A stretch of 64,000 nt of DNA, taken from assembly GCA_964565765.1 (NCBI GenBank), contig CAZMGF010000007.1, forward strand, positions 3,222 through 67,221, written 5' to 3'. Origin of the DNA: an uncultured Spirochaetia bacterium (GTDB lineage: Bacteria > Oederibacteriota > PGYV01 > Palsa-1178). How positions within the stretch are numbered: the first letter of the stretch is position 1; each line of letters starts with the position of its first letter. The notes below the pieces were generated by a model that saw only the letters and a program-made list of their open reading frames with translations, did no database searches and had not been told where the DNA came from. This document shows positions 21,154-58,257 of this stretch, piece by piece. The position numbers were made by a program, and so were the translations under genes.

Positions 21154-21173
21154 ATAAAGCACAATCCGTGCCA
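21154..21173 (-). promoter_or_regulatory. Sigma54 (-24/-12) promoter upstream of the barrel-TPR/lipoprotein genes
   Basis: Minus strand TGGCACGGATTGTGCTTTAT (GG-N10-GC), nearly identical to three promoters inside the flagellar cluster. Confidence 0.75.
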
Positions 21174-21222
21174 ATATAATCCTTGTTTTTAAAGTGGATT
21201 GTCCGGGAATTTGAGAGGATAT

Positions 21223-21260
21223 TTGAAATGCATTGCACAAAATATGGAATGGGTTCCATA
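21223..21260. promoter_or_regulatory. Tandem enhancer-like palindromes (candidate bEBP UAS)
   Basis: TATGGAA-N4-TTCCATA at 21243-21260 and a degenerate copy TTGAAATGCATTGCAC at 21223-21238, 21 bp apart. Confidence 0.6.
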
Positions 21261-21305
21261 GTGTTTTCATGGTTTATCCGGAATAACCAATTATCGTCAG
21301 TAAAG

Positions 21306-21740
21306 TTATACGCCTTCCTTAGTTTCGGATTTTTTTTCCGCTTCTTCAGCCGCATTTTGCGCAGGTACGGCAGGGGCGTCAGTTACGGCGGCTTCAATAT
21401 TTTCCACCGGTTTATCCGGTTGGGGCTCCGGTTTACCAACGGTGCCGGCAAGCTCCTGCCTTATCAACGCTATAATTTCATCCTTGAGCTCCCGGGAAAG
21501 TTTGGGCGCCCCGGAATCCGTCTTATCGCTTTTATCTTCAGCAGCGCCGTTTTGGCCCGGCTGCTCAAGGCACGTTGATATTTTGTATACAAGGGTTGCA
21601 AGTTCCCTGTACTTGGTGTCACCGAGGATATCGATCAAATTGGCAATTACAACCGCATATGGCTCAACTATCGAGCCGCTGTAGCCGCTGTCATTGGCGA
21701 ATTTTTCGACTGCCTCTCGTATATCGGCTTTTAAGTCCAC
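21306..21740 (-). CDS. Orphan acidic protein, probably sigma28-dependent
   Basis: GTG at 21740 follows an SD (GGAGGG). The track's ATG at 21791 lies only 2 nt past the predicted -10 element. Helical N-terminus, Pro/Ala/Glu-rich disordered tail. Confidence 0.65.
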   Translation of the reverse strand: MDLKADIREAVEKFANDSGYSGSIVEPYAVVIANLIDILGDTKYRELATLVYKISTCLEQPGQNGAAEDKSDKTDSGAPKLSRELKDEIIALIRQELAGTVGKPEPQPDKPVENIEAAVTDAPAVPAQNAAEEAEKKSETKEGV

Positions 21741-21793
21741 AATACCCTCCCTCTTTATTTTCAATCGCATCAAAAAGAACTCTTCTTTCATTA

Positions 21794-21820
21794 TAATCGG
21801 TAATTACGGCCGGTAACTTA
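21794..21820 (-). promoter_or_regulatory. Sigma28 (FliA)-type promoter
   Basis: TAAG-N15-ACCGATTA on the minus strand. Confidence 0.65.
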
Positions 21821-21834
21821 AATTATTTTATATG

Positions 21835-22209
21835 CTAAATTTCACCCGTAATCTTTTTGATAAGAGCGGCATGGTCGGCGTCAATTAACATGAAATTTAC
21901 CCCTATCCTGAACACATCAATAACTTTCTCATCCTTTCTGCACCATTCAACACGTCCGAATGTGGTGAGCGGAACTTCCTCTTCCGGCAGATAAACATCC
22001 ATTTTTATCACCTGGCCGGGGCGCATCTCCTCATCGGCGACCATCTGGATCCCGGAAAGGCTTATATCAATGGACGCCCCGGATTTTTCAATCTTCAGTT
22101 TTTCCGGATCGCCGCCATAATCAAGTATCTCCGCGTATTTATACAATACTTTCGCGGAAATAGCCGCCCTTCTGTGTTTTCTGCCTTCTCTGCCGCCGTA
22201 GTTTTCCAT
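21835..22209 (-). CDS. Single-domain PilZ protein (putative c-di-GMP receptor)
   Basis: RKHRR (RxxxR) and DISLSG (DxSxxG) motifs; GRVEW...FRIGVNF. Confidence 0.9.
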   Translation of the reverse strand: MENYGGREGRKHRRAAISAKVLYKYAEILDYGGDPEKLKIEKSGASIDISLSGIQMVADEEMRPGQVIKMDVYLPEEEVPLTTFGRVEWCRKDEKVIDVFRIGVNFMLIDADHAALIKKITGEI

Positions 22210-22263
22210 TTTTTTTGCCGAAAAAAAAACGGCAAATGCTCCTTTATGTTTTTTAAATTCAAA

Positions 22264-22298
22264 AAAAAGACCCGGGCGCGAAGCGCCCGGGTCTTTTT
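22264..22298. terminator. Intrinsic terminator after fliS (symmetric A/T tails)
   Basis: AAAAAGACCCGGGCGC-GAA-GCGCCCGGGTCTTTTT perfect hairpin. Confidence 0.85.
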
Positions 22299-22311
22299 AA
22301 TTGAGAAATTT

Positions 22312-22737
22312 TCATACCCTGTTTTTAACAACACCCTCGCTCCACGTATCCCGCATCATCTGTATTATTTTCAGGGCGTCTTCGGCCTTCTGCCTGTCTT
22401 TTTTCATATTGCTCTGGGTTATCGACCGGTCTATAAAAACGTAAAGTTTCCTGAAATTAACCGCTATATCCCCGCCTTTTTCAAAATTAAGCGAGCCGTT
22501 AAGTTCATCCACAATGGCATCCGCCTTGTTAAGGTTGTTGTTTATTTTTTCGTATGACTCCTCGCTGAAGCCTTCCAGGGCCGCCCGCAGGAATTTAATG
22601 CATCCATCATACAGGTCAAGTATGAGCAGCTCCGGCGGCCGCGTTAAAAAACTGTTATTTACATACTTTTTTATCGAATCGTTCATGCTGTCAACCGCCC
22701 TTAATTCCTGTTTTTCCATTTTCGTCCCGCCTTTCAT
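22312..22737 (-). CDS. fliS: Flagellin export chaperone FliS (alternative start at 22719)
   Basis: PPELLILDLYDGCIKFL...ELNGSLNFEKGGDIAVNFRKLYVF...MRDTW. Confidence 0.92.
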   Translation of the reverse strand: MKGGTKMEKQELRAVDSMNDSIKKYVNNSFLTRPPELLILDLYDGCIKFLRAALEGFSEESYEKINNNLNKADAIVDELNGSLNFEKGGDIAVNFRKLYVFIDRSITQSNMKKDRQKAEDALKIIQMMRDTWSEGVVKNRV

Positions 22738-23366
22738 TAATGTAATGTACTGCCTTCCATCACGTCTTTATAAAGCGCAGGCATGGTATTTTCCCAGCCG
22801 TCTATCATAGGCAAAAGTTCGTATTCCACAATATCCGCGGTCATAATACTATCTTCCAGGCTTATCGCGTCAACTATCCTGGTAAGCATCCCGTTTATAA
22901 CGGATGACTTTTCAATAAATTCATTCACATAACTGCGCCCCTCAACAAAGTTCAGGAGCCCGGATGTTTTCATGCTTCCCATCATTGTAAAAACAGTCTG
23001 GATACTCGACACGCACTGCGAGAAACTTTTCATGGATTTCTCAAATTCCCCCGTCAGAAGAAGCTCCACAACTTTCTTAAGCGCGCCTTTCACCTTTTCA
23101 AGCACAAGAACCGAATCATATATTGTGGCCATCGCTATTTCTTTCTGGGTTGCGGTTACAAGATCCACATATTCGTCATGCACGCTCACAAGCCCGAAAA
23201 TATCCTGGCCGTAAAAATCATACTTGTCGCCCCGGGGGGTCTTTAAAAAAACTATAATCCTGTCCTTTTTTCCGGTGCCCCGCTCCACAAGTTCCACAAG
23301 CGTGTTTCTGCTCTGTTTTTCAAACTCTATTGCGCCGTATTCGATGCCGTCAATTAAAAGTTTCAT
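22737..23366 (-). CDS. Conserved-looking hypothetical helical protein between fliD and fliS
   Basis: 209-aa ORF coupled to fliS by a TAATG overlap; C-terminal TADIVEYELLP...W motif resembles hypotheticals in other flagellar loci. Confidence 0.7.
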   Translation of the reverse strand: MKLLIDGIEYGAIEFEKQSRNTLVELVERGTGKKDRIIVFLKTPRGDKYDFYGQDIFGLVSVHDEYVDLVTATQKEIAMATIYDSVLVLEKVKGALKKVVELLLTGEFEKSMKSFSQCVSSIQTVFTMMGSMKTSGLLNFVEGRSYVNEFIEKSSVINGMLTRIVDAISLEDSIMTADIVEYELLPMIDGWENTMPALYKDVMEGSTLH

Positions 23367-23395
23367 ATTTTCACCTCTGCCTTTTATTTTAAGCG

Positions 23396-25303: not shown

Positions 25304-25353
25304 TTTAGTTCTCCTTTCCCCTCGCTTAAATCCGGTATAAATCCCGGCTCATT

Positions 25354-25386
25354 AAAAGGCCGGCAGGGTTAGAGGCCCTGCCGGCC
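25354..25386 (-). terminator. Intrinsic terminator after flagellin
   Basis: GGCCGGCAGGG/CCCTGCCGGCC 11-bp stem followed by TTTT on the minus strand. Confidence 0.8.
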
Positions 25387-25400
25387 GGTTGATTGAAATT

Positions 25401-26222: not shown

Positions 26223-26228
26223 GATTCA

Positions 26229-26322
26229 TCCTCCGTGATGTTTTTTTCCCGGAATCCTTTCCGGGTGCTTCAGCGTCGCTTGCTCCGTGGCCATCGGAAC
26301 AGTTTGCGTTTTTCTTTTCCTT
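26229..26322 (-). promoter_or_regulatory. Flagellin leader with four ANGGA CsrA-type sites
   Basis: AAGGA (26318-26322); ACGGA (26284-26288); AAGGA in the loop of hairpin CCCGGA-AAGGAT-TCCGGG (26248-26265); ACGGAGGA overlapping the SD. Confidence 0.75.
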
Positions 26323-26330
26323 ACACTTAA

Positions 26331-26357
26331 GCTTCGTCAACTTTTCCGGAAAACTTA
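26331..26357 (-). promoter_or_regulatory. Sigma28-type promoter of fliC
   Basis: TAAG-N15-GACGAAGC. Confidence 0.6.
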
Positions 26358-26361
26358 AATT

Positions 26362-26595
26362 TTATTTTTTCTTTTTTCCTTTCAGTTCCACTTTCGTCAA
26401 ATCCGGCGTTTTTTCCACAAGCGCCCTTGCGTTTTCCTCCTGAACCTTCCTGTACACCTCCTCCCTGTAAATTGAGACGTTTTTCGGGGCAGAGATGCCT
26501 ATCCTTACTTCGCTGCCCCGGAGTTCAGCCACTGTTATTTCTATATTACCGTTTATTATTATCTTTTCTCCCGTTTTCCTTGACAGAATCAGCAT
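26362..26595 (-). CDS. csrA: Carbon storage regulator CsrA
   Basis: MLILSRKTGEKIII...VRIGISAPKNVSIYREEV...EEN, with the C-terminal extension typical of FliW-regulated CsrA. Confidence 0.95.
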   Translation of the reverse strand: MLILSRKTGEKIIINGNIEITVAELRGSEVRIGISAPKNVSIYREEVYRKVQEENARALVEKTPDLTKVELKGKKKK

Positions 26596-27019: not shown

Positions 27020-27043
27020 TACCCCTTTTCTTTTTTGAATATT

Positions 27044-27946: not shown

Positions 27947-27972
27947 AATCTCCACCTCGTTTATTTATAAAA

Positions 27973-30447: not shown

Positions 30448-30474
30448 GTATCGGCCTGAATTCCCGGAATGTTA
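30448..30474 (-). promoter_or_regulatory. Sigma28-type promoter of flgMN-flgKL-fliW-csrA
   Basis: TAAC-N15-GCCGATAC. Confidence 0.75.
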
Positions 30475-30527
30475 AGCAACAATGGCACCAGCTTCTCTGA
30501 ATATTTCACACCTGCCTGAAAAGAGCC

Positions 30528-33713: not shown

Positions 33714-34406
33714 TCAGAATTTTCCAAACTCGGTTATCGCCTTGCTCACCGCGTCATCGTTGGCCTGAATAAGTTTCTGGTTTGATTCGTAAGAATTAAG
33801 GGTGTTTACCATTTTAATCATTTCATTGACCCTGTTAACATTCGAACCTTCCCTCATCCCCTGTGTTATAAGGGCGTATCCCGAAGGCGCCTCAACCCCG
33901 GCGTCGTTGATTGTAAAGGTGCCGTCGGCCCGGGGCGTGACTTTTGCCTGGCTGCCGGCCTGCACTATATCAATCTTGTCAACGACAGCGTTGTTTTCCA
34001 TGCATTCGCCCGTCTGTGTTATTTTAAAATCGGAAAGGGACTGTACTTTTATGGACGTGCCGCTAGTATTCAGTATTTTCATCCCGTTAAATGTAAGCTC
34101 GCCGGACGAATTAAGGCTGAGCCTTCCGTCCTTGATATAATAAATATTGCCTTCATCATCGGCGGCTTTCATGAAGTATTTTTTTCCAAGAACCACATCA
34201 AGGGGGTTGGAGGTGGTGCGCAGCGCGCCGCCGGACAAATCCGTGGTAGACGCGGCCTCCGGGGTGTCGTCTTCGGTGTTTACATAAAACAATTCATTGC
34301 TCTTATAATAATCCGTGTCAATATTTGATGAATTCTGGGCCGTCATTTCGTGCTGCTGCTCCCTTACCATCATTGCCGCAGCTGAAATCCTTACCGCGTT
34401 ATCCAT
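33714..34406 (-). CDS. flgF: Proximal rod protein FlgF (FlgG paralogue)
   Basis: Start MDNAVRIS; REGSNVNRVNEMIKM...YESNQK; lies directly upstream of flgG. Confidence 0.8.
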   Translation of the reverse strand: MDNAVRISAAAMMVREQQHEMTAQNSSNIDTDYYKSNELFYVNTEDDTPEAASTTDLSGGALRTTSNPLDVVLGKKYFMKAADDEGNIYYIKDGRLSLNSSGELTFNGMKILNTSGTSIKVQSLSDFKITQTGECMENNAVVDKIDIVQAGSQAKVTPRADGTFTINDAGVEAPSGYALITQGMREGSNVNRVNEMIKMVNTLNSYESNQKLIQANDDAVSKAITEFGKF

Positions 34407-34442
34407 CGCAACCTCACGTTTGTATTTTTTTATCATATTAAT

Positions 34443-34462
34443 ATAAAGCACAAAGCGTGCCG
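34443..34462 (-). promoter_or_regulatory. Sigma54 promoter of flgFGAHI
   Basis: CGGCACGCTTTGTGCTTTAT (GG-N10-GC). Confidence 0.78.
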
Positions 34463-34513
34463 GGGCGCCGGCTTACGGAAAATAAGGGTTTTTTCTTTCT
34501 CAGGAGTGATAAA

Positions 34514-34550
34514 ACCTACACGCTTCCATAAAGTATGGAAATTTTCTTTT
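34514..34550. promoter_or_regulatory. Degenerate tandem enhancer (half-sites CTTCCAT and ATGGAAA)
   Basis: The half-sites fall at the same offsets (about 61 and 82 bp from -24) as the full sites at the flgB-operon promoter. Confidence 0.45.
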
Positions 34551-34554: not shown

Positions 34555-36981
34555 TCAGGCGCAGCTTGGCAGGTGTATCGTAAATATGGTGCCTTTGCCG
34601 GATGTAACAAAATCTATCTTGCCGCCCTGTAGTTCAATGGCCTTTTTCACATTGTACAACCCGAGTCCCGTTCCGGTTTTTTTGGAGGTGTTAAAAGGCT
34701 CGAATATTTTGTTCATTATTTCTTCCGGTATGCCGTGGCCCGTGTCTCCGATTTTTATAACAAGGTCCCCGGCTTCCTCTGATGCCGCGACCGTCATTTC
34801 CCCGCCGCCCTTCATTTCATCCATGGCGTTCATATAAAGGTTCAAAAGCACCCGTTCAAACCACATTTTATCAGCTTTTACCATGCCGGTTATTTTCAGG
34901 TCCTTTACTATCCTGACATTCTCGGATTTGGCCTTGTGCGCGATAAATTTAAGGGTGGCGCCTATCGACGCTTCCGGGTCAAATTCTTCAATGGTTATCT
35001 TCATCTGTTTGGCGAATTCCATCATTTGCTTCAATATGTGGTCTATATCTATTATCTTTCCCTCCAGATTTTCAAGTATATCGTCTTTTTCCTGAACGGT
35101 GGCGTTCCTTGAATTCTGCACCGCCCCGAGCATTATGGTAAGAGGATTTCTTATCTCATGCGCGACGGCCGCCGCGAATTTTCCCATTCCCGCCAGCTGT
35201 TCACTTATAATGAGCCGCTGCTCGGTCTTGCGCAGAGTCTCGGTGGTTTCTATAAGCTGCTCGTTTTGCTTCAATATCTGGTCAAAAAGGTATGAATTCT
35301 CTATTGATTTCGCCACATGTTCCATCAGCAGTGCAAGCATTTCCACATGAAGCGGATCCATATCCTGTTTTTCAACGCATACGTAACCTATAAGCTTATA
35401 ACGGAGTTTCAGCTGGAAAACCCGGGTGACGCCCGGAATGTTGAAAACCGCGAATTTTTCATTGTTAAGAAGGGCATCCGTTGAATCCTTTCCATAATTT
35501 TCAATTTCTTCCCTGTTGATGGTATTTTTCGAGTACCGCTCAATGCGTTCTTTTTCATATCCGGTGCAGTGTATCAGCTCGAGATTCTGGGATTTTTTAT
35601 TGAAAAGCAGGAGCCCGACTTTCTCCGAGCCCACAAACTGCGAGACTATTTCCACAAAAATGCCTATAAGCTTGGTGTATTCCATGGTTGAATTTATTAT
35701 CTGGGAAATATTGATAAGGCTCCTGATGAGTATGTTTTCCTTGTTGAGCCTGCCGACAAGCATCATGTTTTTATAAATAACGCTCACTATATTTACCACA
35801 AAATCAATTATTTCCATCTTGTTTTCAAAAGTGGCCTCAATACCCCTGGCGTTATAGAGCACAAGCACGCCCAGTTTTATTTCGGCTCCCTTCAGGGGGA
35901 TTATCAGCACATTGGAAACAAGGCCTTCCGGATCATCCATATATTTTTTAACGTCATCGCCGGTAAGAAATAAAGGCTGCTGGTGCATGGCTTTTTTGAC
36001 CTGCTGTATGTGTGTTTTCAATCCGGCATCTGAAAATTTTTCAGCCCCTTCCTGTTCCTCCATGCCGCTCCTGTAAATATTGCCGCCGTCAAAAATATAG
36101 ACGGCCCCGGCCTGGGCGTAAAAATAATTCCCCACCTCCAGAAGAAGCTTTTTAAAAAAATCCCTGCTCCCGGACGGCTCGTTAAGGGTGTGCTGAAAAA
36201 GTTTCTGGATATTGGCCAGCAGCCTTTCGCGCGTCCTGTCATTAACGACAAGTATGCGCCTCTGGTGCCCGTCTACTTCCATGCTGTTTATTTCAAGGTA
36301 CAGTTTTCCTTTGACCGGCGAAACAAACTGTGCGTTCACAGGAGAATCTGAATTTTTTATGTCGGTTTTAAAGACAGCCTCTGCATTCGCCCCTATTATC
36401 ATTTCCTGGCCCACAGAGAGCATATCGTATAGGTTGGAATTCGCCTCAATAATATTGAGCCCGCTGTCTGTAAGTATTACGGCGTTAGGCATCCCCTTCA
36501 AGACCTCGTCAAGCATAACTTTGCGGACATCCGCGGTGTCATGCGCCCGTGAGTAGCTTTCTTTAAGGGCCAAATTTGCCGTTTCCAGCTCGTCGGTAAG
36601 CATTTTTACCCTCAGCATGGCCTTTATCCTGGCGCGCAACTCTTCGGGTTCAAAAGGCTTGGTTATATAATCATCAACTTTTGAGTTTATAAAACTGTCA
36701 ATCTTGTCTTTCTGGAGATGCCTTGCAGTAACCATTATAATGGGTATTTTCCTGAGCCCGGGGTCTTCTTTGATCATCCTGGCAACTTCGCCCCCCCTTA
36801 AAAGAGGCAGCATTTCGTCAAGAAGTATAAGGTCGGGTTTAAAACTGTTTATTTTTGAAAGGGCTTCTTTGCCGTCATTGGCGGTTTCAACTTCATACTG
36901 CCCGGGCTCCATGCCCAGTATTATCTGGATAATCTTGACTATATCGGGCTCGTCGTCAACGACAAGTATTCTTTTTTGCAT
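34555..36981 (-). CDS. Soluble hybrid histidine kinase REC-PAS-GAF-GAF-HisKA-HATPase
   Basis: REC ILVVDDE..LLDEMLP..TKPF; H-box AHEIRNPL; N box LLNLYMNA; DTGHGI; GTGLGL; no TM segment. Confidence 0.9.
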   Translation of the reverse strand: MQKRILVVDDEPDIVKIIQIILGMEPGQYEVETANDGKEALSKINSFKPDLILLDEMLPLLRGGEVARMIKEDPGLRKIPIIMVTARHLQKDKIDSFINSKVDDYITKPFEPEELRARIKAMLRVKMLTDELETANLALKESYSRAHDTADVRKVMLDEVLKGMPNAVILTDSGLNIIEANSNLYDMLSVGQEMIIGANAEAVFKTDIKNSDSPVNAQFVSPVKGKLYLEINSMEVDGHQRRILVVNDRTRERLLANIQKLFQHTLNEPSGSRDFFKKLLLEVGNYFYAQAGAVYIFDGGNIYRSGMEEQEGAEKFSDAGLKTHIQQVKKAMHQQPLFLTGDDVKKYMDDPEGLVSNVLIIPLKGAEIKLGVLVLYNARGIEATFENKMEIIDFVVNIVSVIYKNMMLVGRLNKENILIRSLINISQIINSTMEYTKLIGIFVEIVSQFVGSEKVGLLLFNKKSQNLELIHCTGYEKERIERYSKNTINREEIENYGKDSTDALLNNEKFAVFNIPGVTRVFQLKLRYKLIGYVCVEKQDMDPLHVEMLALLMEHVAKSIENSYLFDQILKQNEQLIETTETLRKTEQRLIISEQLAGMGKFAAAVAHEIRNPLTIMLGAVQNSRNATVQEKDDILENLEGKIIDIDHILKQMMEFAKQMKITIEEFDPEASIGATLKFIAHKAKSENVRIVKDLKITGMVKADKMWFERVLLNLYMNAMDEMKGGGEMTVAASEEAGDLVIKIGDTGHGIPEEIMNKIFEPFNTSKKTGTGLGLYNVKKAIELQGGKIDFVTSGKGTIFTIHLPSCA

Positions 36982-37054: not shown

Positions 37055-37792
37055 CTAGAATATATTAAGGACTTTTTCAACGGAGAGTTTTGCCTTTATT
37101 TTTGAAATGGCCTGGCCGTGTATCTGGGATATCCTGGCCTCTGTCAGATCCATCGCCCTTGATATCTCCTTGAGGGTGAATCCTTCATAATAATACATTG
37201 ACAGCACCGACCTTTCACGGATATCAAGAGCCGTGTCAATTATCCTGGCCAGCAGCTCCCTGCGTTCCATGGATTCCGCATTATCATCGGCGTAAACCGG
37301 GCCGCCTCCGGAATTTGACGAAAAAAATTCGTCTATGGAATAAACCTTATTTACGTGCAGGCCGTCTATGAGCTTGTAATATGCCGTCATATCCAGTCCC
37401 ATTTCCTGAGCAACCTGCTCGTCCGTGGGGTTCGAACACCCGCGCTCCATCAGCGCTCTGTAGGCTTTTTCAAGCCTTGAAGTTTTTTCTTTTACCGATC
37501 TCGGGGCCCAGTCGGCGTTTCTTAAGTAGTCCATTATACTTCCGTATATCCTGAAATAGGCGTAAGTGACGAATTTTATATCGCGCCCCGGGTCGTACTT
37601 TTCAACGGCCTCCAGGAGCCCCATTGCCCCTATATTAAAAAGGTCGTCTTTACTGGCAAGCGTGGAGGCAAAATAAACCCTTTCCACCACGAACCTGACC
37701 AGGTTTATATATTTTTTCGCTATTTCATTCCGTGCCGCTGTGCTTTTGTTTTTTTCGTACTCTTCCCAGACGCCCTTTTCTTCTTCATTCAT
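37055..37792 (-). CDS. fliA: Flagellar sigma factor sigma28 (FliA/WhiG)
   Basis: GAMGLLEAVEKYDP..KFVTYAYFRIYGSIMDYLR..DWAPRS; YYYEGFTLKEI...TEARISQIH. Confidence 0.95.
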   Translation of the reverse strand: MNEEEKGVWEEYEKNKSTAARNEIAKKYINLVRFVVERVYFASTLASKDDLFNIGAMGLLEAVEKYDPGRDIKFVTYAYFRIYGSIMDYLRNADWAPRSVKEKTSRLEKAYRALMERGCSNPTDEQVAQEMGLDMTAYYKLIDGLHVNKVYSIDEFFSSNSGGGPVYADDNAESMERRELLARIIDTALDIRERSVLSMYYYEGFTLKEISRAMDLTEARISQIHGQAISKIKAKLSVEKVLNIF

Positions 37793-37801
37793 TTTGGCAC
37801 C

Positions 37802-37991: not shown

Positions 37992-39404
37992 CTAAAGCCC
38001 GTATTCTTTCATCTTGTTATAAAGCGTCTTATAATCCACTTTCAGCGCCTCCGAAACCTTTGTCTTGTTCCATTTAAATTTGTTAAGGGCCCTGACTATC
38101 ATTTCACGCTCTATCTGCTCCCTTGCCCTGCCGCAGGCGTCCTTTAGCGGCAGTATCTCCCCGGAGTCACTCCCGCCCGCCCCGCCTTCCATGCCCGGCT
38201 GGCCGTAATGTTCGCCGCCCGCCACCCTGTCAGTAAGGCTCTTTGGCAGGTTTGCTTTTGTAATATAAGTGTCGGCCATTATTATGGCGTGCTTTATTGT
38301 GTTTTCGAGTTCCCTCACGTTGCCCGGCCATGAATAATCCATAAAAATCTGTTTTACTTCATCATCAATTTCTTTCACATTTTTTTCAAATTTAAGGTTA
38401 TATTTCATTATGAACCTGCCAGCCAGGAGAAGCACATCGTCCCCCCTGCCCCGCAGCGGCGGCAGTTCAAGGTAATATTCATTTATCCTGTGGAAAAGGT
38501 CGTCCCTGAATTCCCCTTTTTTCACAGCTTCATTAAGGTCCACATTTGTCGCGGTAATAACGCGAATATCCAGGTCTATGGTCTTGCGCCCCCCGATTCT
38601 GACTATCTTGCGTTCCTGAAGGACCCTTAATAATTTTTTCTGCACATTAAGCGAAAGATTGCCTATTTCATCAAGAAACAGCGAGCCGCCGTTGGCAAGC
38701 TCGAACCTGCCTGTTTTCGCCTCTGTGGCTCCGGTAAACGACCCTTTTTCATGGCCGAAAAGTTCCGATTCGACGAGATTATCCGGCAGTGTGGCGCAGT
38801 CTATCGAAACAAAAAGCCCCTCTTTTCTCTGGCTGTTCCTGTGTATGGTCTTGGCGACCAGTTCCTTGCCGGTTCCGGATTCACCCAGCAAAAGCACGGA
38901 AACCTCATAACCGGCTATTTTCCTCGCAGTTTCCACAACTTTGGAAAAGCCCGGATGCCCGGTTATTATTTCTTCCTCGGAGTCTTCGCCTTTTATTTTT
39001 TTACGGAGAAGTTTAATTTCCGTTTCCAGTTCCCTTGTCTTAAGGGCATTCTGCACCGTTACCCTGAATTTTTCCTCATCAACGGGTTTTACAAGATAAT
39101 CATAGGCCCCGAGTTTTGTCGTTTCCACCGCAAAACTTACATTTTCATAGGCTGAAAGTATTATTACAGGTGCCTTGAACCCCCTCTCGTTCATCTGTTT
39201 CATAACATCCACACCCGACATACCCGGCATTGTAATATCAAGTATCACCATGTCAAAGGCTGTTTTTTCTATTTTAGAAAGGCAGGCTTCGCCGTTTGAC
39301 GCGCTTTCAAAATCGTAGCCGAATTTTTTTACCAGGCTGCTTATATACCAGACTATCTCAGGGTCGTCATCCACTATAAGTATCTTATGCGTTTTTGGAT
39401 CCAT
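37992..39404 (-). CDS. NtrC-family sigma54 enhancer-binding protein (REC-AAA+-Fis HTH), likely the flagellar activator
   Basis: REC with ILDITMP; GESGTGKE; ESELFGHEKGSFTGA; WPGNVREL; C-terminal HTH WNKTKVSEALKVDYKTLYNKM. Confidence 0.92.
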   Translation of the reverse strand: MDPKTHKILIVDDDPEIVWYISSLVKKFGYDFESASNGEACLSKIEKTAFDMVILDITMPGMSGVDVMKQMNERGFKAPVIILSAYENVSFAVETTKLGAYDYLVKPVDEEKFRVTVQNALKTRELETEIKLLRKKIKGEDSEEEIITGHPGFSKVVETARKIAGYEVSVLLLGESGTGKELVAKTIHRNSQRKEGLFVSIDCATLPDNLVESELFGHEKGSFTGATEAKTGRFELANGGSLFLDEIGNLSLNVQKKLLRVLQERKIVRIGGRKTIDLDIRVITATNVDLNEAVKKGEFRDDLFHRINEYYLELPPLRGRGDDVLLLAGRFIMKYNLKFEKNVKEIDDEVKQIFMDYSWPGNVRELENTIKHAIIMADTYITKANLPKSLTDRVAGGEHYGQPGMEGGAGGSDSGEILPLKDACGRAREQIEREMIVRALNKFKWNKTKVSEALKVDYKTLYNKMKEYGL

Positions 39405-39472
39405 TTTTCCTCCATGTATTTCCGTTTTTTTTGGATTCACGGGGCGCATTAATAATAATCATTTTCCCGCCA

Positions 39473-43670: not shown

Positions 43671-43715
43671 TTTTCCTCCTTATAATAAATATATTAAAAT
43701 TATTGCATTTATACC

Positions 43716-43735
43716 ATATTGCACAAAGTATGCCG
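43716..43735 (-). promoter_or_regulatory. Internal sigma54 promoter of fliQR-flhBA-activator-fliA
   Basis: CGGCATACTTTGTGCAATAT (GG-N10-GC) in a 255-bp AT-rich gap between fliP and fliQ. Confidence 0.7.
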
Positions 43736-43773
43736 GAGAATGTTGTATAAAAATAAGGGGTAATATTATTATA

Positions 43774-43814
43774 ATGGAAACTTTTCCATGCTCAAATATG
43801 GAAACAATTCCATA
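43774..43814. promoter_or_regulatory. Tandem palindromic enhancer (candidate UAS)
   Basis: ATGGAAA-CT-TTTCCAT (43774-43789) and ATGGAAA-CA-ATTCCAT (43798-43813). Confidence 0.7.
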
Positions 43815-43925
43815 GTTTTTTATTTAATTTTGTATGCAGAAATTGGCGTTGATTATTAAGAAACTATATTATTGCATGTAATAATTCAGCTGCAGTCAGA
43901 CCTTAATAACCCGCATTTGGTTTCG

Positions 43926-48559: not shown

Positions 48560-48565
48560 TATTTT

Positions 48566-50476: not shown

Positions 50477-50490
50477 TACTTCGCCTCCTT

Positions 50491-51651: not shown

Positions 51652-51659
51652 TGTTCCAC

Positions 51660-52127
51660 CTAGTTTAATCCCGCGCCCTGCGCCCTGAATTTAAAAACCG
51701 CGTACTCGTCCGATGCCTTTTGTTCATTCAGATTCTCAGCGTCTTCATGTACCTTTTCATCCCGTTCCCTTATTTTTTCATATGTAAGTGTTTCTTTTCC
51801 GGCTTCTGTCAGGTCCCTGTGCAATTCCTCGAGCTTTGCCTCAAGGGATCTTATCTCCTCTTTTTTTCTTTTTATAAATTCACCGATGCATACAAGATAT
51901 GTGTGGTAGGATTTTATTTCATTAAGATTCTGCGGCGTACGCCTTCCTTCGGAAACGGTTTTAAGCATCGTGTGCCGCATCAGCATCTCTTTTTCAACAG
52001 CTATGTTAAGTTTTATCTTTTCCACGCCGATCTGTGTATTCAGGGTGTCACACTGCTTTTTTATTTCCTTCTCCGTGAGTTCCTTATTTTTCAGAATCTT
52101 TTCAAACCTGTATTTAAAGCTGCTCAT
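51660..52127 (-). CDS. fliJ: Export ATPase stalk FliJ
   Basis: FKYRFEKILKNKELTE; coiled coil; EQKASDE; follows fliI. Confidence 0.85.
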   Translation of the reverse strand: MSSFKYRFEKILKNKELTEKEIKKQCDTLNTQIGVEKIKLNIAVEKEMLMRHTMLKTVSEGRRTPQNLNEIKSYHTYLVCIGEFIKRKKEEIRSLEAKLEELHRDLTEAGKETLTYEKIRERDEKVHEDAENLNEQKASDEYAVFKFRAQGAGLN

Positions 52128-54049
52128 TTTTTAGCCTCCTGTCTCATAATATTTTCAAGTTCTGCCAGGCTTCCGGCCGGCTCGCTCTTTTCGTCGATTC
52201 CCTGCCTTAAAAACGAATTCAATTTTTCAATTATATGACGCGCGTGGTCCACTTTTGGATTTGCACCTTTTTTATACGCGCCAATATTAATAAGATCCTC
52301 CATCTCCTGCATTATTGAGACTGTTTCCCTGGCTTTTCCCGCCGTTTTAATCTGGGCGTCGTCCGTAATGTCGGCCATCAGCCTGCTAATTGATGAAGTC
52401 ACATCAATTGCCGGATAATGATTCCGCGTGGCAAGCTTCCTTGATAGAACTATGTGTCCGTCCAGAATAGATCTCACAGAATCCGCCACCGGCTCGTTCA
52501 TGTCATCGCCTTCAACAAGCACGGTGTAAAACGCCGTTATTGATCCGCCTTTTACAAAATTCCCGGAACGCTCAAGTAATTTTGGAAGCTTGGTAAAAAC
52601 AGAAGGCGTGTATCCTTTTGTGGAAGGCGGTTCTCCGGTGGCAAGCCCTATTTCCCTTAGAGCGGTCGCGTAACGTGTGACAGAATCCATCATTAAAAGC
52701 ACATTGAGCCCCATGTCCTTAAAAAACTCGGCTATCGTGGTCGCCGCCATGGCGCCGTGAACGCGTTCAAGGGCGCTCCTGTCAGATGTGGCCGCTATGA
52801 CCACCGCTCTTTTTAAACCCTCTTCCTGCAGGTCCTTTTCAATAAAATCCTTTACTTCCCTGCCCCTCTCGCCGATGAGCCCTATTACAATGACATCAGC
52901 CGATGTGTTGCGCGCCATCATTCCCATAAGAGATGATTTCCCTACCCCGCTGCCGGAAAATATACCCATTCTCTGCCCTTTTCCGCATGTAAATAAGGAG
53001 TCTATGGCGCGTATCCCCGTGGTTAGTTTATCCTTGATTCTGTCCCTTTCAAAAGGCGTTGTCTGTATCCCGTAAATGGAGCGCTTTTCCGTAAATTTTA
53101 TTGCCGGCCCGCCGTCAATCGGGTTTCCAAGCCCGTCCATAACACGGCCAAGCATATCTTTTCCAATCCCGAGTTCAAACTGCTGCTTTAAATCAATAAC
53201 CCGGCTGTTGGGGCCCACGCCCTGCATTTCATCAAGCGGCATCAGCAGGTTCTTGCCCTCCCTGTAACCTACAGCTTCAGACTTTATCCTTTTCTTGTTG
53301 TCTTTGGTGAATATGTCGCACATGTCTCCTATAGAGCACTCAAGCCCCTCGACCTCAATAACGCTGCCGACTATTTCCTTAACAACTCCTTCGACAGTGA
53401 CAAGGCTTGTTTCAGGAGTTATTTCATTTCCCGTCAGTATCTTTTCCCCGGCATTTTTAATCTTTTCATTTATGGTCGCGTCAACGGCCCTGCTTCCGGA
53501 TTCTACTATGCAGCCGCCTTTTGAAAGCGTCCTGTCCTTTTTAAGTGTTATTCCCTTGCGTGATTTTTCAAGCTCAACCGCAAGGCCGCTTGCCGCAAGG
53601 GCGTCAAAGTCAGTTTCGTTCAGATAAACCTCGATTTCCTCGTGCGCGGCAAAATTGGCCATCGCATCTTCAACTGTTTTTTTTATCTGTCCCTCGTCGC
53701 TTTTACCTCCGGCAAGAATGTTTCTGAGTATATCCATCATATCTTGTACATTCGCCCGTCTGCGCTTTGCCTCAAGGGCGTCATATTTTTTCAGTACGCC
53801 CGAGAGCAGTGTCTTAAAACCCTTCCTGGCGTTTTTTTCCGCAAGAATCCTGGCCTCATTTGTCTGCGCAAGAAGCATTTTTTCAAATTCAAGCGCGGCT
53901 TCTTCATAACCGCGCGTGTATTCCGCCGACTTTGTCCTTAAAGCGGCCGGCAAAATTTCGTCTATTACCGCCCCCATTCCGGCCGCTGCCGAAATCATGG
54001 CGCTGGATGACGGCTTTTTTGTGTTCTTTATTATCCTATACAACGACAT
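52124..54049 (-). CDS. fliI: In-frame FliH-FliI fusion (export ATPase with its regulator)
   Basis: aa 1-205 are FliH-like (VYLNETD...DRTLSKGGCIVESGSRAVDATI). From about aa 217 the sequence is FliI (VEGVVKEIVGSVIE; FSGSGVGKS; LLMMDSVTR). No stop codon at the junction. Confidence 0.9.
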   Translation of the reverse strand: MSLYRIIKNTKKPSSSAMISAAAGMGAVIDEILPAALRTKSAEYTRGYEEAALEFEKMLLAQTNEARILAEKNARKGFKTLLSGVLKKYDALEAKRRRANVQDMMDILRNILAGGKSDEGQIKKTVEDAMANFAAHEEIEVYLNETDFDALAASGLAVELEKSRKGITLKKDRTLSKGGCIVESGSRAVDATINEKIKNAGEKILTGNEITPETSLVTVEGVVKEIVGSVIEVEGLECSIGDMCDIFTKDNKKRIKSEAVGYREGKNLLMPLDEMQGVGPNSRVIDLKQQFELGIGKDMLGRVMDGLGNPIDGGPAIKFTEKRSIYGIQTTPFERDRIKDKLTTGIRAIDSLFTCGKGQRMGIFSGSGVGKSSLMGMMARNTSADVIVIGLIGERGREVKDFIEKDLQEEGLKRAVVIAATSDRSALERVHGAMAATTIAEFFKDMGLNVLLMMDSVTRYATALREIGLATGEPPSTKGYTPSVFTKLPKLLERSGNFVKGGSITAFYTVLVEGDDMNEPVADSVRSILDGHIVLSRKLATRNHYPAIDVTSSISRLMADITDDAQIKTAGKARETVSIMQEMEDLINIGAYKKGANPKVDHARHIIEKLNSFLRQGIDEKSEPAGSLAELENIMRQEAKK

Positions 54050-55037
54050 CAGGGTTGCCCCCTTCCAGGACTATTTCTCCGCTGGCTTCGAGTTTCCTTA
54101 CAGCCGCGAGCACCTTCTGCTGGGACTCCTCGACTATCTGCCTTTTCAGCGGCCCGGTTGCTTCCATATCGTCCTTTATCATTTCCGCCCCGCGCTCGGA
54201 CATATTTGTGAATATTTTTGTCTTTAATTCCTCCGATACGCCTTTAAGAGCTATGACAAGCTCTTTTCCCTCAACTTCACGGAGGATCCGCTGCATGTAC
54301 CTGTCTTCAATGGCCTTTAAATCCTCAAACCTGAATAGTTCTTTTTTGATAAATGAGGCCATTTCAGGTGCGTCTTTTTCAAGGATGTCAATTATCTCCT
54401 TGAGCTGTTTTTTATCGACTTCGTGCAGTATTTTAATAAGTTTTTCAAGGCCGTTAATCTTTATCTCCTTCTTTTTTACAAGCTTGTCCCTTAAGATGGA
54501 AATTATTTCATTTATCATTTCCGTATCGGGCTCGGTTTTTTCAATAACCCCTATGCGCCTTGCTATGTCGGCCCTGGCGTCTTTGGGCAGGAAGCTTAAA
54601 ATATCGGCCCCTTTTTCAGGCGACGTAAAGGCCACTATCACAGCTATTATCTGCGCAGGCTCATTTTTTATCGCCTCAAAAATTTTTTCGGTTTCCAGTT
54701 CCTCGATAAACTTGAACGGCCCCTCGTCGGGCCTTAAAAAAGATATCATTTCATCAGCTTTTTTGGAGTCGTAAAGGTTTGAAAGTATTTCCCTGGCAGC
54801 CGGATAGCCGCCGGTGCTTTTTTCGTCCGCTTCCACCATTGACAGTGTAAAATCCCTTATTATTCCAAGACGCTCTTCCATTGATATCTCTCCGAGGTTC
54901 ATCACCTCGGCCACAACATGGTTGACCTCGTTCTCATTTAAGTGTTTGAGGATGTCCTTTGAGAATTCCGGCCCAAGCGCGACTATGAGTTTTGCAACCT
55001 TTGCGAAATCTTTTCCTTTTTCAATTGTTGCGGGCAT
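54036..55037 (-). CDS. fliG: Rotor/switch protein FliG
   Basis: KVAKLIVALG; LFRFED (MFxF motif); torque helix NMSERGAEMIKDDM. Confidence 0.94.
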   Translation of the reverse strand: MPATIEKGKDFAKVAKLIVALGPEFSKDILKHLNENEVNHVVAEVMNLGEISMEERLGIIRDFTLSMVEADEKSTGGYPAAREILSNLYDSKKADEMISFLRPDEGPFKFIEELETEKIFEAIKNEPAQIIAVIVAFTSPEKGADILSFLPKDARADIARRIGVIEKTEPDTEMINEIISILRDKLVKKKEIKINGLEKLIKILHEVDKKQLKEIIDILEKDAPEMASFIKKELFRFEDLKAIEDRYMQRILREVEGKELVIALKGVSEELKTKIFTNMSERGAEMIKDDMEATGPLKRQIVEESQQKVLAAVRKLEASGEIVLEGGNPDVVV

Positions 55038-55049
55038 ATTTATTCTCCA

Positions 55050-56555
55050 TTATGATATCCATGATTTTATGACCTTGGCGGCTTCTTTGGGGTTTTCCCT
55101 TGCCATTTTAAGTATTTCCTCGGGTTTTAAATTTTTCCCGTGGCCGTTTCCATTTCCATTGCCGTTTCCATTGCCGTTCCCGTTGTCATGCCCAGAAGAT
55201 ATATAAACACCCTTGGAAAAAAGCTGGATGCCTTTTCCCATATTCACGGCAAAAACAACACCAAGAATTATCAGAACCAGGGCCGGTAAATAATCTTTCA
55301 GCAGGTTTACATAAAAATCGCGCTGCGCAAGAGAATCTATTTTAGCGGTTTCTTCCTCGGATATTGACGCCTTGAATTCCATGGCTTTTATGTCAATAAC
55401 GTCCCCGCTTTTTACGTTTATTCCCGCGGCGGCCGCGATGGATTGTTTTAAATTGTCCATATATTTGTCGTCGTATTTTCCGTTGAGCACAACGGCAACT
55501 GTCACGTTCTTTACATCGCCGGGCGTCACAACTGTTTTTTCAGATTCCCTGTTTAATTCATAATTTACGGATTTTTTCTGCCTGACTACCGGCGGTGGTG
55601 CCGGAAGGGACGAGTTTGTGGTCACAGTTGCGCCGTTGGAAGGCGCCACTCCTTCGGAAGTGGAGTCTTCCGATTTTACCGCGGCCTGCTGCGGCTGCGG
55701 CGGAGGTGTATATGATTCCTTCGCTTTTTCCACCTTATTAAACTGAAGCGCAGCGCTGACACGAACCGTTGAATTTCCGGCTCCTACTATATTGTCCAGG
55801 AATGACTGTATTTTGTTCCTGTAATAATCCTCAACCCTGCTGGTAAGTTCAAGTTTTTTATCGGATATGTCGGAATCCGCGCCCCTTGAAAATTCCGTCA
55901 GTATTTTTCCGTCGGTTGAAATTACGGCCACACCCTCGGGCCCGAGCCTTTCAACGCTGCTTGCGACAAGATTCTGTATGCCCAAAATCTGCTCTTTTTT
56001 CAGGTCAACGCCCGGCTTTAATTTAAGGTAAACCGAGGCTTTTGACTGTGACTGTTCATCATCGAATAATTTCTGGTCCGGAATTGAAAGGTGCACCCTG
56101 CACTTTTCGATTCCCGGTATATTGTCAATGGTCCTTTCGAGTTCCGTCTGCAGCGCCCTCTGATAGTTTATTTTCCTTTCTTCATCGCTCATTCCAAAAT
56201 TAGCCTTGTCAAAAAGCTCAAAACCGACTCCGCCGCCTATGGACATCCCGCTTCCGGCAACTTTTATCCTCTCCTGCATCAGCATATTTTCCGCGACAAG
56301 CACGGCTCCCGTCGCCTTGTCAAATTTATAAGGCACCTTGTCATCGTCAAGCTTTTTTACTATTTTGGCCGAATCTGCGTCGGTCAAATTCGAAAATAAC
56401 GGCTTATAATCAGGCGTAGTGGCCCATACAAATATGCCGCTTCCAAGCAGCGCCACAATCAAGCCGGTTACTATCAGCCCTGTCTTCTGCCCGGGCTGTA
56501 GCGAGTTCCACCAGTTTTTGGCGGAAGCTAAAAGATTATTAAGTTCAGTAGGCAT
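55050..56555 (-). CDS. fliF: MS-ring protein FliF
   Basis: Two TMs; GFELFDK..FGMSD; YQRALQTELERTI; C-terminal ENPKEAAKVIKSWI. Confidence 0.95.
   Translation of the reverse strand: MPTELNNLLASAKNWWNSLQPGQKTGLIVTGLIVALLGSGIFVWATTPDYKPLFSNLTDADSAKIVKKLDDDKVPYKFDKATGAVLVAENMLMQERIKVAGSGMSIGGGVGFELFDKANFGMSDEERKINYQRALQTELERTIDNIPGIEKCRVHLSIPDQKLFDDEQSQSKASVYLKLKPGVDLKKEQILGIQNLVASSVERLGPEGVAVISTDGKILTEFSRGADSDISDKKLELTSRVEDYYRNKIQSFLDNIVGAGNSTVRVSAALQFNKVEKAKESYTPPPQPQQAAVKSEDSTSEGVAPSNGATVTTNSSLPAPPPVVRQKKSVNYELNRESEKTVVTPGDVKNVTVAVVLNGKYDDKYMDNLKQSIAAAAGINVKSGDVIDIKAMEFKASISEEETAKIDSLAQRDFYVNLLKDYLPALVLIILGVVFAVNMGKGIQLFSKGVYISSGHDNGNGNGNGNGNGNGHGKNLKPEEILKMARENPKEAAKVIKSWIS
55143..55184 (-). 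repeat. (Asn-Gly)7 dipeptide repeat in the FliF cytoplasmic tail
   Basis: Encoded by mixed synonymous codons (AAC/AAT, GGG/GGC/GGA). Confidence 0.85.
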
Positions 56556-56565
56556 TCATTCCTCC

Positions 56566-56922
56566 TTAAACCTGCATCTTCATGACGGTATTGTAAGCGT
56601 CAATTATTTTGTCCCTTACTTTGACAGTAAAATTAATTGAAAACCTCGCCTGTTCAGCCGCTATCATGACATTATGAAGTTCCTCTTTACCCTGGAGAAA
56701 ATTATTTATTTTCCCTGTGAGTTCCTGCTGCGGCGCGTCCACGGCTTTCACAGCGTCTTTTATGAGCCCTTCCATATCAATATCAGGGGCGTTAAAAGAA
56801 CCTGACGCGACCGACATTCCCGGGCTTAGGTCCAGCCCGGACGCCTGGTCCAATCCATCCATTGGCAGGTCAAGCTTGCTGATATCCATACCCATGCCCG
56901 CGTTAATTCCGTCAATTTTCAT
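56566..56922 (-). CDS. fliE: Hook-basal body protein FliE
   Basis: LHNVMIAAEQARFSINFTVKVRDKIIDAYNTVMKMQV. Confidence 0.92.
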   Translation of the reverse strand: MKIDGINAGMGMDISKLDLPMDGLDQASGLDLSPGMSVASGSFNAPDIDMEGLIKDAVKAVDAPQQELTGKINNFLQGKEELHNVMIAAEQARFSINFTVKVRDKIIDAYNTVMKMQV

Positions 56923-56933
56923 AATGATTCACC

Positions 56934-57335
56934 TCATATGTCAAGGGTTTTTGATAACATGTTCTTTACTGAAGATGCCACTGCGATATTTGCCTCATAC
57001 GCGCGCTGGGCGGAAATCAGGTCCGTCATTTCCCTGACAGTGTTGATTTCCGGGTATTTTACGAACCCCTTCTGGTCCGCGTAGGGATTATTGGGTTCAT
57101 ATTTAAGGACGCCGTTGCTTGCCTCCTGCATAATTTCCTTAACCTGAACCCCTGAATTTTTTCCCTCATCGTCAACTATCGACTCAAAAACCGGCGTCTG
57201 TCTTTTATAAAAACTGCCCTCTTTTGTCATTACCGTGTCGGAATTCGCCACATTGGCCGCTATAATTTCCATCTTTTCTTTCTGGGCCTGCATGCCGCTT
57301 ACCGAAATTTCCATCGGCTTTAAGAATCCACTCAT
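56934..57335 (-). CDS. flgC: Rod protein FlgC
   Basis: ISVSGMQAQ..IIAANVANS; YEPNNPYAD..GFVKYPEIN...AQRAYEAN. Confidence 0.95.
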   Translation of the reverse strand: MSGFLKPMEISVSGMQAQKEKMEIIAANVANSDTVMTKEGSFYKRQTPVFESIVDDEGKNSGVQVKEIMQEASNGVLKYEPNNPYADQKGFVKYPEINTVREMTDLISAQRAYEANIAVASSVKNMLSKTLDI

Positions 57336-57661
57336 GAGCCTGTACCCAGTGATGTATTGAGTATCTGCATTCTTAACGCCGTGATTTTAGCCACCGAATC
57401 ATAGAGAACGGTATTCTCGGAAAGCTCGGCAGTCTCATTTTCGAGTTTTATAGGCACCCCCGGCTGCTGCTGTATTTCCGGCCCTGTCCAGTTTTGAATA
57501 TCTCCGTCATTTTTAAGCAGGTCGTCTATCTGCCCCTGAAAATCAACATCCTGCCTGACATACCCCTGTGTATCGGAATTCGCTATATTTCCGGCAATGG
57601 CCTCATGTTTTGCCCAGATAGTGTCAAGCGCCTTTGAGAGTATTTTATCGACTGCTTCCAT
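57332..57661 (-). CDS. flgB: Rod protein FlgB
   Basis: KHEAIAGNIANSDTQGYVRQDVDF. Confidence 0.88.
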   Translation of the reverse strand: MEAVDKILSKALDTIWAKHEAIAGNIANSDTQGYVRQDVDFQGQIDDLLKNDGDIQNWTGPEIQQQPGVPIKLENETAELSENTVLYDSVAKITALRMQILNTSLGTGS

Positions 57662-58117
57662 TTATCTGTCCTCCTGCAGAAAAAGTCCTTCACTTCTTGT
57701 GTTTTTATAGGCATTTACCAGCATTACGCGTTTCTTTACGTTATTTATTTTTATCCTTGTGCTGTCCATGTTTTTCTGGAGCATTTCCGCGTTGCGTGTC
57801 TGAATTTTGATGAGCTCTTCAAGCAGAAAAGAAAGTTTTACCAGGAGCCTGTCCAGGTCCTTTGAAGAAAATCCGGTCTTTTCTTTCACCGTCATATATT
57901 CATTTTTAAGGGGTTTTATCTGTTTTTCAATCGCGTCAAGATCGGCTATTATGGCTGATTTCTCGGAAAGCACTTTCATGGTCTTTCCGATTTCCCCGCC
58001 TTCCTTTATAAGCTTCATTTCTTCGTCAAGTTTTAACAGCAAAGATTCATAACAGCGTATCTCAATGGCATACTTTGCTATTATTGTATTTATTTTTTCC
58101 TCGGTCATTCTTTCCAT
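57662..58117 (-). CDS. Helical FlgN/FliT-like protein, first gene of the basal-body operon
   Basis: Coiled-coil protein coupled to flgB; ends LFLQEDR, like FlgN-type chaperones. Confidence 0.6.
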   Translation of the reverse strand: MERMTEEKINTIIAKYAIEIRCYESLLLKLDEEMKLIKEGGEIGKTMKVLSEKSAIIADLDAIEKQIKPLKNEYMTVKEKTGFSSKDLDRLLVKLSFLLEELIKIQTRNAEMLQKNMDSTRIKINNVKKRVMLVNAYKNTRSEGLFLQEDR

Positions 58118-58149
58118 ATTTCACCTCCTGCTTTTATCAACGTATACTT

Positions 58150-58169
58150 ATAAAGCACATACCGTGCCG
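58150..58169 (-). promoter_or_regulatory. Sigma54 promoter of the basal-body operon
   Basis: CGGCACGGTATGTGCTTTAT (GG-N10-GC). Confidence 0.78.
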
Positions 58170-58220
58170 TGGCAAAAGGCCGTTAATTTAAAGGCTCTTC
58201 TTTGGTTTTCCGTAACTTAT

Positions 58221-58257
58221 TTGGAAATGAATGCAACCTATATGCAAAAGTTTCCAA
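58221..58257. promoter_or_regulatory. Tandem enhancer-like sites (candidate UAS)
   Basis: TTGGAAA-TG-AATGCAA (58221-58236) and ATGCAAA-AG-TTTCCAA (58242-58257), 21 bp apart. Confidence 0.6.

Follow-up and report, generated by a model that had tools for sequence, protein, structure and literature searches.

Predicted sigma-54 promoters with tandem upstream dyads ahead of the flagellar operons of an uncultured peat and wetland bacterium

How is the transcription of a complete set of flagellar genes controlled in a diderm bacterium that belongs to a lineage without any cultured member? This question is raised by a 64,000-nt stretch of DNA (contig CAZMGF010000007.1, positions 3,222 to 67,221; hereafter the window), which carries a complete diderm flagellar cluster between about 17.8 and 58.1 kb, entirely on the minus strand. 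A sequence-only reading of the window had pointed to a promoter motif shared by four sites, starting at 21154, 34443, 43716 and 58150, and had interpreted it as a new variant of the sigma-54 (RpoN) promoter combined with paired enhancer sites. The explanation that we favor, with a probability of roughly 0.8, is that the four sites are sigma-54 promoters of flagellar operons, activated from tandem dyads by a bacterial enhancer-binding protein (bEBP) of the NtrC family that is encoded in the same cluster. Phylogenetic footprinting lends good support to a flagellar regulon of the sigma-54 plus NtrC type with a defined operator.

The shared motif itself stood up to scrutiny. The 20-nt pattern YGGCAYRNWWTGTGCWWTAT matches exactly at all four positions, always on the minus strand, and the window does not contain any further match with up to two mismatches (0.09 expected). 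As the pattern had been derived from the same four sites, an independent test was established in the form of a weight matrix built from 29 intergenic, experimentally defined Salmonella sigma-54 sites (Samuels et al. 2013, Table 3; PMC3844500). When both strands of the window were scored with this matrix, the four sites occupied ranks 1 to 4 with scores of 20.2, 14.3, 13.7 and 12.5, the value of 20.2 for P1 being the only one inside the range of the Salmonella training sites (15.9-21.7). Of the nine intergenic gaps that measure 60 bp or more (together about 2.2 kb), four hold the sites, among them the three largest. All of them are located on the coding strand, 35-55 nt ahead of operon-first ATG codons with GGAGG-type ribosome-binding sites, and the GG-N10-GC spacing is kept at all four as well as in all orthologues. 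The four promoters are:

21154-21173, minus strand: P1, TGGCACGGATTGTGCTTTAT, -24 G at 21171, predicted +1 near 21147, ahead of the TPR/LRR genes
34443-34462, minus strand: P2, CGGCACGCTTTGTGCTTTAT, -24 G at 34460, predicted +1 near 34436, ahead of flgF; orthologues in the related contigs L088, L089, L090, L095 and L099
43716-43735, minus strand: P3, CGGCATACTTTGTGCAATAT, -24 G at 43733, predicted +1 near 43709, ahead of fliQ; orthologues in L088, L094, L096, L097 and L098
58150-58169, minus strand: P4, CGGCACGGTATGTGCTTTAT, -24 G at 58167, -12 C at 58155, predicted +1 near 58143; orthologues in L094, L096, L097 and L098

Candidate enhancers are found upstream of these promoters. The dyad TGGAA-N4-TTCCA is present exactly three times in the window (0.025 expected). 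Its relaxed form TGSAA-N4-TTSCA has five occurrences against 0.38 expected; one falls within the gene for a hybrid histidine kinase, and the other four are located upstream of P1, P3 and P4. In front of the promoters the dyad takes the form (A)TGGAA-N4-TTCCA(T) and spans 14-16 bp; the proximal sites at P1 and P4 show one mismatch or use TGCAA. At P2, only the inner half-sites occur, arranged as TTCCAT-N5-ATGGAA (TTCCAT-ACTTT-ATGGAA). The individual elements are:

21224-21258: P1 dyads TGCAATGCATTTCA (21224-21237) and TGGAACCCATTCCA (21245-21258), centers 59.5 and 80.5 bp upstream of the -24 G
34515-34549: P2 enhancer, composed of two half-dyads; their inner halves make up TTCCATACTTTATGGAA (34524-34540), with nominal centers 61.5 and 82.5 bp upstream of the -24 G
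43775-43812: P3 tandem perfect dyads ATGGAAAAGTTTCCAT and ATGGAATTGTTTCCAT, centers 48.5 and 72.5 bp upstream of the -24 G
58222-58256: P4 dyads TGCATTCATTTCCA (58222-58235) and TGGAAACTTTTGCA (58243-58256), centers 61.5 and 82.5 bp upstream of the -24 G
58257-58270: extra TGGAA half-site upstream of the P4 dyads

These centers agree with the distances given in the sequence-only reading, i.e., about 59-61 and 80-82 bp at three loci and about 48 and 72 bp at fliQ. Its description of two palindromic or half-palindromic sites per promoter applies in the form of dyads to P1, P3 and P4, and P2 has to be described by half-sites only. Further conserved elements reside in the same regions. A 10-mer, CCCTTATTTT, is situated between enhancer and promoter at P2 (34479-34488) and P3 (43750-43759) on the minus strand and is conserved in the orthologues, while related blocks, CCTTTAAA, are present at P1 and P4; judged by sequence, the element may be a candidate DNA-bending or IHF/HU-type site. 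A conserved TTATCAY block is located near P2 at 34499-34512.

Eight related contig sets, collected by a metagenome scan with the hybrid kinase and by look-ups of FlgE and FlgK homologues, allowed the promoters and dyads to be followed through evolution. The relatives share the gene order of the window, their FlgE identity to it ranges from 93% down to 66%, and every one of the sets has the promoter in the orthologous intergenic regions:

P4 class: CGGCACGGTATGTGC in the window; CGGCATGGTATGTGC, TGGCACAGATAATGC, TGGCACAAATCGTGC and CGGCACGGAAAATGC in relatives
P3 class: CGGCATACTTTGTGC in the window; CGGCATGGTTCGTGC, CGGCATACTTCATGC, TGGCACGCATAGTGC (twice) and TGGCACACTTCGTGC in relatives
P2 class: CGGCACGCTTTGTGC in the window; CGGCACGCTTCATGC and CGGCACGTTTTGTGC in relatives
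P1 class: TGGCACGGATTGTGC in the window; CGGCACGGAATATGC in the relative L099, ahead of the orthologous TPR/LRR pair

In those related loci that yielded any score of at least 12, the top matches to the Salmonella matrix were the orthologous flagellar promoters, and those of L096, L097 and L098 reached 17.6-19.2, which is inside the Salmonella range. The dyads are conserved along with the promoters. At fliQ, they lie 47.5-49.5 and 70.5-73.5 bp upstream of the -24 position in six genomes, and the spacing of the P3 pair is between 23 and 24 bp across five related genomes, four of which share the value of 24 bp. Ahead of the flgN-like gene, a site about 61 bp upstream of -24 is present in five genomes and the distal site at about 82 bp is recognizable in three, the P4 dyad positions being the same in L094, L096, L097 and L098. 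For the TPR gene, the distal dyad is found at 80.5 bp in both genomes concerned, the window and L099. Ahead of flgF, TTTCCATAATTTATGGAAG is invariant in four related contigs with diverged flanks, and the everted half-site pair is invariant in five contigs. Dyad centers, spacers and flanks diverge between the relatives, with promoters and dyads staying in register.

Across the 1.81 Mb of fetched loci, the arrangements ATGGAA-N4-TTCCAT, TTCCAT-N5-ATGGAA and TTCCAT-N18-ATGGAA are confined to the clade and its outgroups, and each occurrence that was examined lies upstream of a sigma-54-type promoter. The dyad was not found in the approximately 1.6 Mb of this material that stem from unrelated flagellar clusters. 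The two outgroup loci L100 and L101, the latter labelled FCPU426, carry fully canonical TGGCAY-N5-TTGC promoters (TGGCACATCTGTTGC, TGGCATGTTCCTTGC and TGGCATGGGGTTTGC; scores 18.9-20.0) ahead of a flgN-like gene and fliL, and TTCCAT-N18-ATGGAA resides upstream of each of them, about 150-170 bp away by locus coordinates. The operator half-site thus appears to be older than the clade. Because the outgroups have the same half-sites upstream of fully canonical versions, we consider it beyond reasonable doubt, by sequence comparison, that the promoters in the window are of the sigma-54 type. An FlhA scan of genome contigs returned, among the matches listed, only distant genomes (≤48% identity) without shared synteny.

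The genes of the cluster, with the predicted regulators encoded behind P3, are:

behind P4, minus strand: flgN-like, flgB-like, flgC, fliE, fliF, fliG, fliH-fliI fusion, fliJ, fliK, flgD, flgE, flbD, motAB and fliLMN(O)P
behind P3, minus strand: fliQ, fliR, flhB, flhA, the gene for the NtrC-family bEBP, a 59-aa open reading frame (ORF), fliA and the hybrid histidine kinase gene
behind P2, minus strand: flgF (ATG at 34406), flgG, flgA, flgH and flgI
behind P1, minus strand: genes for a TPR protein (19845-21101, 418 aa) and an LRR protein (17839-19848, 669 aa)
late-gene region, minus strand: flgM, flgN, flgK, flgL, fliW, csrA, flagellin, fliD, DUF8042, fliS, PilZ protein and a 161-aa ORF
37992-39449, minus strand: NtrC-family response-regulator bEBP, 485 aa, with REC, AAA+ and HTH_8 domains; proposed dyad binder
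34555-36981, minus strand: hybrid histidine kinase with REC, HisKA and HATPase_c domains, encoded at the end of the P3 operon; candidate partner of the bEBP
37055-37792, minus strand: fliA (sigma-28) in the P3 operon, linking the sigma-54 tier to the late genes
30448-30474, minus strand: sigma-28-type promoter TAAC-N15-GCCGATAC ahead of flgM, conserved in L095 and L099

In the bEBP, the REC domain contains the acceptor Asp, the Sigma54_activat domain (E = 1.5e-67) carries Walker A and B motifs as well as a GSFTGA loop, and the C-terminus is formed by an HTH_8 domain; its closest solved structures are those of Aquifex NtrC1/NtrC4-type regulators. In the comparison with NCBIfam equivalogs (FlgR, FlbD, NtrC and AtoC), it scored 317-430 against cutoffs of 558-750 and stayed below every one of them (FlgR 320 versus 750, FlbD 317 versus 750, NtrC, and AtoC as the best with 430 versus 714). 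By sequence, it is a predicted activator resembling FlrC, FleR, FlgR and FlbD that falls outside every named orthologue group. FliA aside, the flagellar cluster does not encode a DNA-binding regulator besides this protein.

Put together, the proposed circuit would work as follows. RpoN would recognize the -24/-12 promoters at the head of the flagellar operons, and each promoter would be activated from two upstream sites of the 16-bp dyad ATGGAA-N4-TTCCAT, centered at about -72 to -107 and probably bound by dimers of the response regulator. Phosphorylation of the regulator by a kinase of the cluster would lead to its oligomerization and thereby to remodeling of the closed sigma-54 complex. With P3 at the head of the operon that encodes the bEBP, FliA and the hybrid kinase, positive autoregulation is to be expected, the regulator driving its own operon, and so is a hand-over to sigma-28: the circuit would feed a sigma-28 tier via fliA, in agreement with the sigma-28-type promoter ahead of flgM. 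The motif and its geometry, their conservation, the genes present and the domains of the activator are observed directly, and dependence on sigma-54, the identity of the dyad-binding protein, the pairing with the kinase and the positions of the start sites are deduced from them.

Several observations weigh against this explanation. The scores for P2 to P4 (12.5-14.3) are lower than the training minimum of 15.9, which can be explained by C at -26 and G at -15, and shuffled sequence yields between zero and five sites with a score of at least 13 per window. The matrix score alone is therefore not decisive for P2 to P4, and it is their position that carries weight. A gene for RpoN was found neither in the window nor in the rest of the 71-kb contig. 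The bEBP gene would depend on the very promoter that its product activates, and a basal promoter was not identified. The metatranscriptome contigs, public low-depth Logan data, are sparse and cover parts of flgF/flgG and the flagellin gene, none of them reaching a 5' end. Nevertheless, the good depth for the flagellin gene and the flgF/flgG fragments in these RNA contigs indicate that the flagellar cluster is expressed in situ. Finally, the sequence-only reading had put forward the palindromes as the binding motif of the cluster's NtrC-family activator. With their conservation in register, the dyads are indeed the best candidate operator; their assignment to this particular protein is made by co-location only.

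Among the alternatives, the one that survives best accepts dependence on sigma-54 and proposes that the RpoN of this clade has shifted its preference to a purine at -15 and a pyrimidine at -26, the flagellar promoters having followed by co-evolution rather than drift while the outgroups kept TTGC. It corresponds to the possibly lineage-specific RpoN preference of the sequence-only reading, which the present evidence hints at without supporting it. The claim of the same reading that TGTGC is a distinct variant of the -12 element did not hold in that form. The 18 promoters from the clade, which represent four classes and eight contig sets, all have a purine at -15, G in 11 cases and A in 7, and the -16 base varies among T, C and A, as in CATGC, AATGC and CGTGC. 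At the 29 Salmonella sites, which are served by a canonical RpoN, T prevails at -15 with 19 sites, followed by C with 5, A with 3 and G with 2, so that ten deviate from T (PMC3844500). A constant purine next to a free -16 base does speak for a shift, as do the three outgroup flagellar promoters, all with T at -15, and the minority share of purines in Salmonella (5/29) as opposed to their universal presence in the flagellar promoters of the clade; at the Salmonella frequency, four independent promoters would all carry a purine about 0.1% of the time. However, canonical sigma-54 makes use of GTGC and ATGC at glmZ, hydN, hycA, zraP and fdhF. The glmZ site, TGGCACGTTATGTGCAAT (GTGC), is almost the motif of the window, ATGC is found at hycA, zraP and fdhF, and the sites bound in chromatin immunoprecipitation include the CGGCA type (proA, CGGCACAGTTTATGCAAG) (PMC3844500). 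Compared with the enterobacterial consensus, the larger deviation is the C that replaces T ahead of GG (-26), present at three of the four sites and in most of the subclade to which the window belongs. Neither a purine at -15 nor a C at -26 therefore falls outside the known binding range of sigma-54, and these bases do not make a new promoter type. In addition, the changes from G to A are transitions, and the four promoter classes may stem from one duplicated module and hence be non-independent; the fliQ promoter is missing in FCPU426. By sequence, purine at -15 and C at -26 are clade-level habits of this regulon. The constant purine beside a free -16 could reflect one duplicated module, regulon-specific tuning or a changed RpoN, and we regard the last as unlikely. 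A canonical-looking site, CGGCACAGGTATTGC, is located in the clade member L096 at 18128-18149; a kinase gene ends 74 nt before it, and an SDR gene follows after about 300 nt. This site is the sole candidate for a non-flagellar sigma-54 promoter seen in the clade and, with its TTGC, would speak against a shifted RpoN, though its score is within the chance range.

The second alternative leaves the promoters as they are and has the dyads bound by another factor, a master regulator or repressor encoded elsewhere, the cluster's bEBP acting without them. FlgR of Helicobacter pylori and Campylobacter jejuni can act without binding DNA. Assignment by co-location and the failure of the bEBP to reach any named equivalog cutoff leave some room for this scenario. 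On the other hand, the bEBP retains a full HTH_8 domain, a tandem 16-bp dyad at -70 to -110 is the classic layout of an NtrC-type enhancer, the half-site accompanies sigma-54 promoters into the outgroups, and the cluster does not encode any further DNA-binding regulator apart from FliA. Taken together, these points make a separate dyad-binding factor quite improbable. That the shared 20-mer is not a promoter of this kind, but arose by chance or serves a different sigma factor or a regulator, is hardly credible: although the matrix scores of P2 to P4 individually fall in the chance range, all four sites are correctly placed and oriented, the GG-N10-GC spacing fits sigma-54 only, the orthologues are conserved with canonical versions in the outgroups, and a bEBP is present.

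The proposed activation of sigma-54 promoters by the cluster-encoded bEBP has counterparts in known systems. As in the FlrC, FleR, FlgR and FlbD regulons of Vibrio, Pseudomonas, Campylobacter/Helicobacter and Caulobacter, the flagellar cluster contains the gene for an NtrC-family response regulator equipped with a sigma-54 interaction domain, the rod, hook and export operons stand behind -24/-12 promoters, and a sigma-28 tier follows downstream. The REC-AAA+-HTH_8 architecture of the named flagellar bEBPs is also shared. The regulator in the window differs not only in staying below the FlgR, FlbD, NtrC and AtoC cutoffs but also in its apparent range, as a single protein would serve the early genes (fliE/F/G, fliQ/R, flhB/A) as well as the rod and ring operons, its own operon included. 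A master regulator of the FleQ/FlrA type is not encoded in the window's cluster. As for NtrC at glnAp2, two dyads about two helical turns apart are situated upstream of a sigma-54 promoter, and Fis-type HTH_8 dimers are the predicted ligands; in the window, the two centers are separated by 24 bp at P3 and by 21 bp at the other three promoters, and they fall 50-85 bp upstream of -24. The half-site is a different one, ATGGAA instead of the TGCACC of NtrC. FlrC of Vibrio cholerae often binds downstream of the promoter. The same has been reported for DVU1063 of Desulfovibrio vulgaris, in contrast to the upstream, dyadic enhancers of the window (PMC4641369). The enhancer-binding proteins of D. vulgaris include bEBPs with GSFTGA, and most of the enhancer sites in this organism are less than 100 nt from the promoter (PMC4641369).

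The type of regulon described here is known and ordinary; that we are dealing with an example from an uncultured lineage, with a -12 base within known sigma-54 variation, is well supported. Its value lies in a concrete regulon model for a lineage without cultured member, comprising promoter, operator, activator, autoregulatory loop and sigma-28 tier, in an operator half-site, ATGGAA, that can be named and that persists into candidate division FCPU426, and in the addition of the TPR/LRR gene pair to the flagellar regulon. Knowledge about sigma-54 itself is unchanged, and the purine at -15 matters only if the RpoN of the clade is altered, in which case it would provide a natural case of co-evolution between sigma-54 and its promoters.

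JGI metagenome contig 3300041809 Ga0455670_0003396 (71 kb) matches the window with an offset of about 130 bases at the low end, near-identical contigs are also present in ENA and Logan, and the DNA and RNA runs that contain the window are peat and wetland metagenomes. The nearest named relative is candidate division FCPU426, and with identities of only 52% for FlgE and 44% for FlgK the lineage is uncultured and poorly placed.

Some observations concern the surroundings of individual promoters. The TPR/LRR pair stands behind a sigma-54-type promoter and dyad in the window and in one relative (L099, 18662-21407) and is not found at this position in the 328-kb relative L095; by their position, the two proteins are candidates for new flagellum-associated components. 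The junction between fliP and fliQ, where P3 is located, is an insertion hot spot (window 43671-43925; L094 16395-18137, L096 16279-19176, L097 16143-16871, L098 16160-18636). The inserts in the relatives comprise a PAS histidine kinase, an SDR gene, a methyltransferase or three metabolic genes, and P3 would restart transcription past them. In FCPU426, fliP and fliQ abut without a gap or promoter, and a sigma-54 promoter is found ahead of fliL instead.

Two further sequences were considered and discarded. TGGTGCC-N4-TTGCTT at 30474-30490, beside the sigma-28 promoter of flgM, is not conserved in relatives and probably arose by chance. The plus-strand sequence GGCACCTCAGTTGC at 37796 is not a promoter but the reverse complement of the fliA ribosome-binding region, which also explains its conservation. 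With regard to the late genes, a sigma-28 consensus resembling that of Escherichia coli was not found ahead of the flagellin gene. The 5' leader of this gene (26223-26330, minus strand) is strongly conserved in relatives, has GGA motifs around the ribosome-binding site and is close to fliW-csrA, which suggests translational control by CsrA/FliW. In the metatranscriptome contigs, no other gene of the cluster is covered as well as that for flagellin. Clear intrinsic terminators are located after fliS (22261-22293) and after the flagellin gene (25354-25386) on the minus strand and split the late-gene region into separate units.

FliH and the FliI ATPase form a single ORF of 641 aa (52124-54049, minus strand), and the fusion is present in all relatives including the FCPU426 outgroup (640-658 aa). 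Type-9-secretion markers (PorV, Por_Secre_tail cargo) are located on either side of the flagellar cluster (10627-11631 and 62695-63525), and a third such gene, coding for 1206 aa, runs past the right end of the window (L102, 4939-8559). Type-9 secretion and flagella seldom co-occur.

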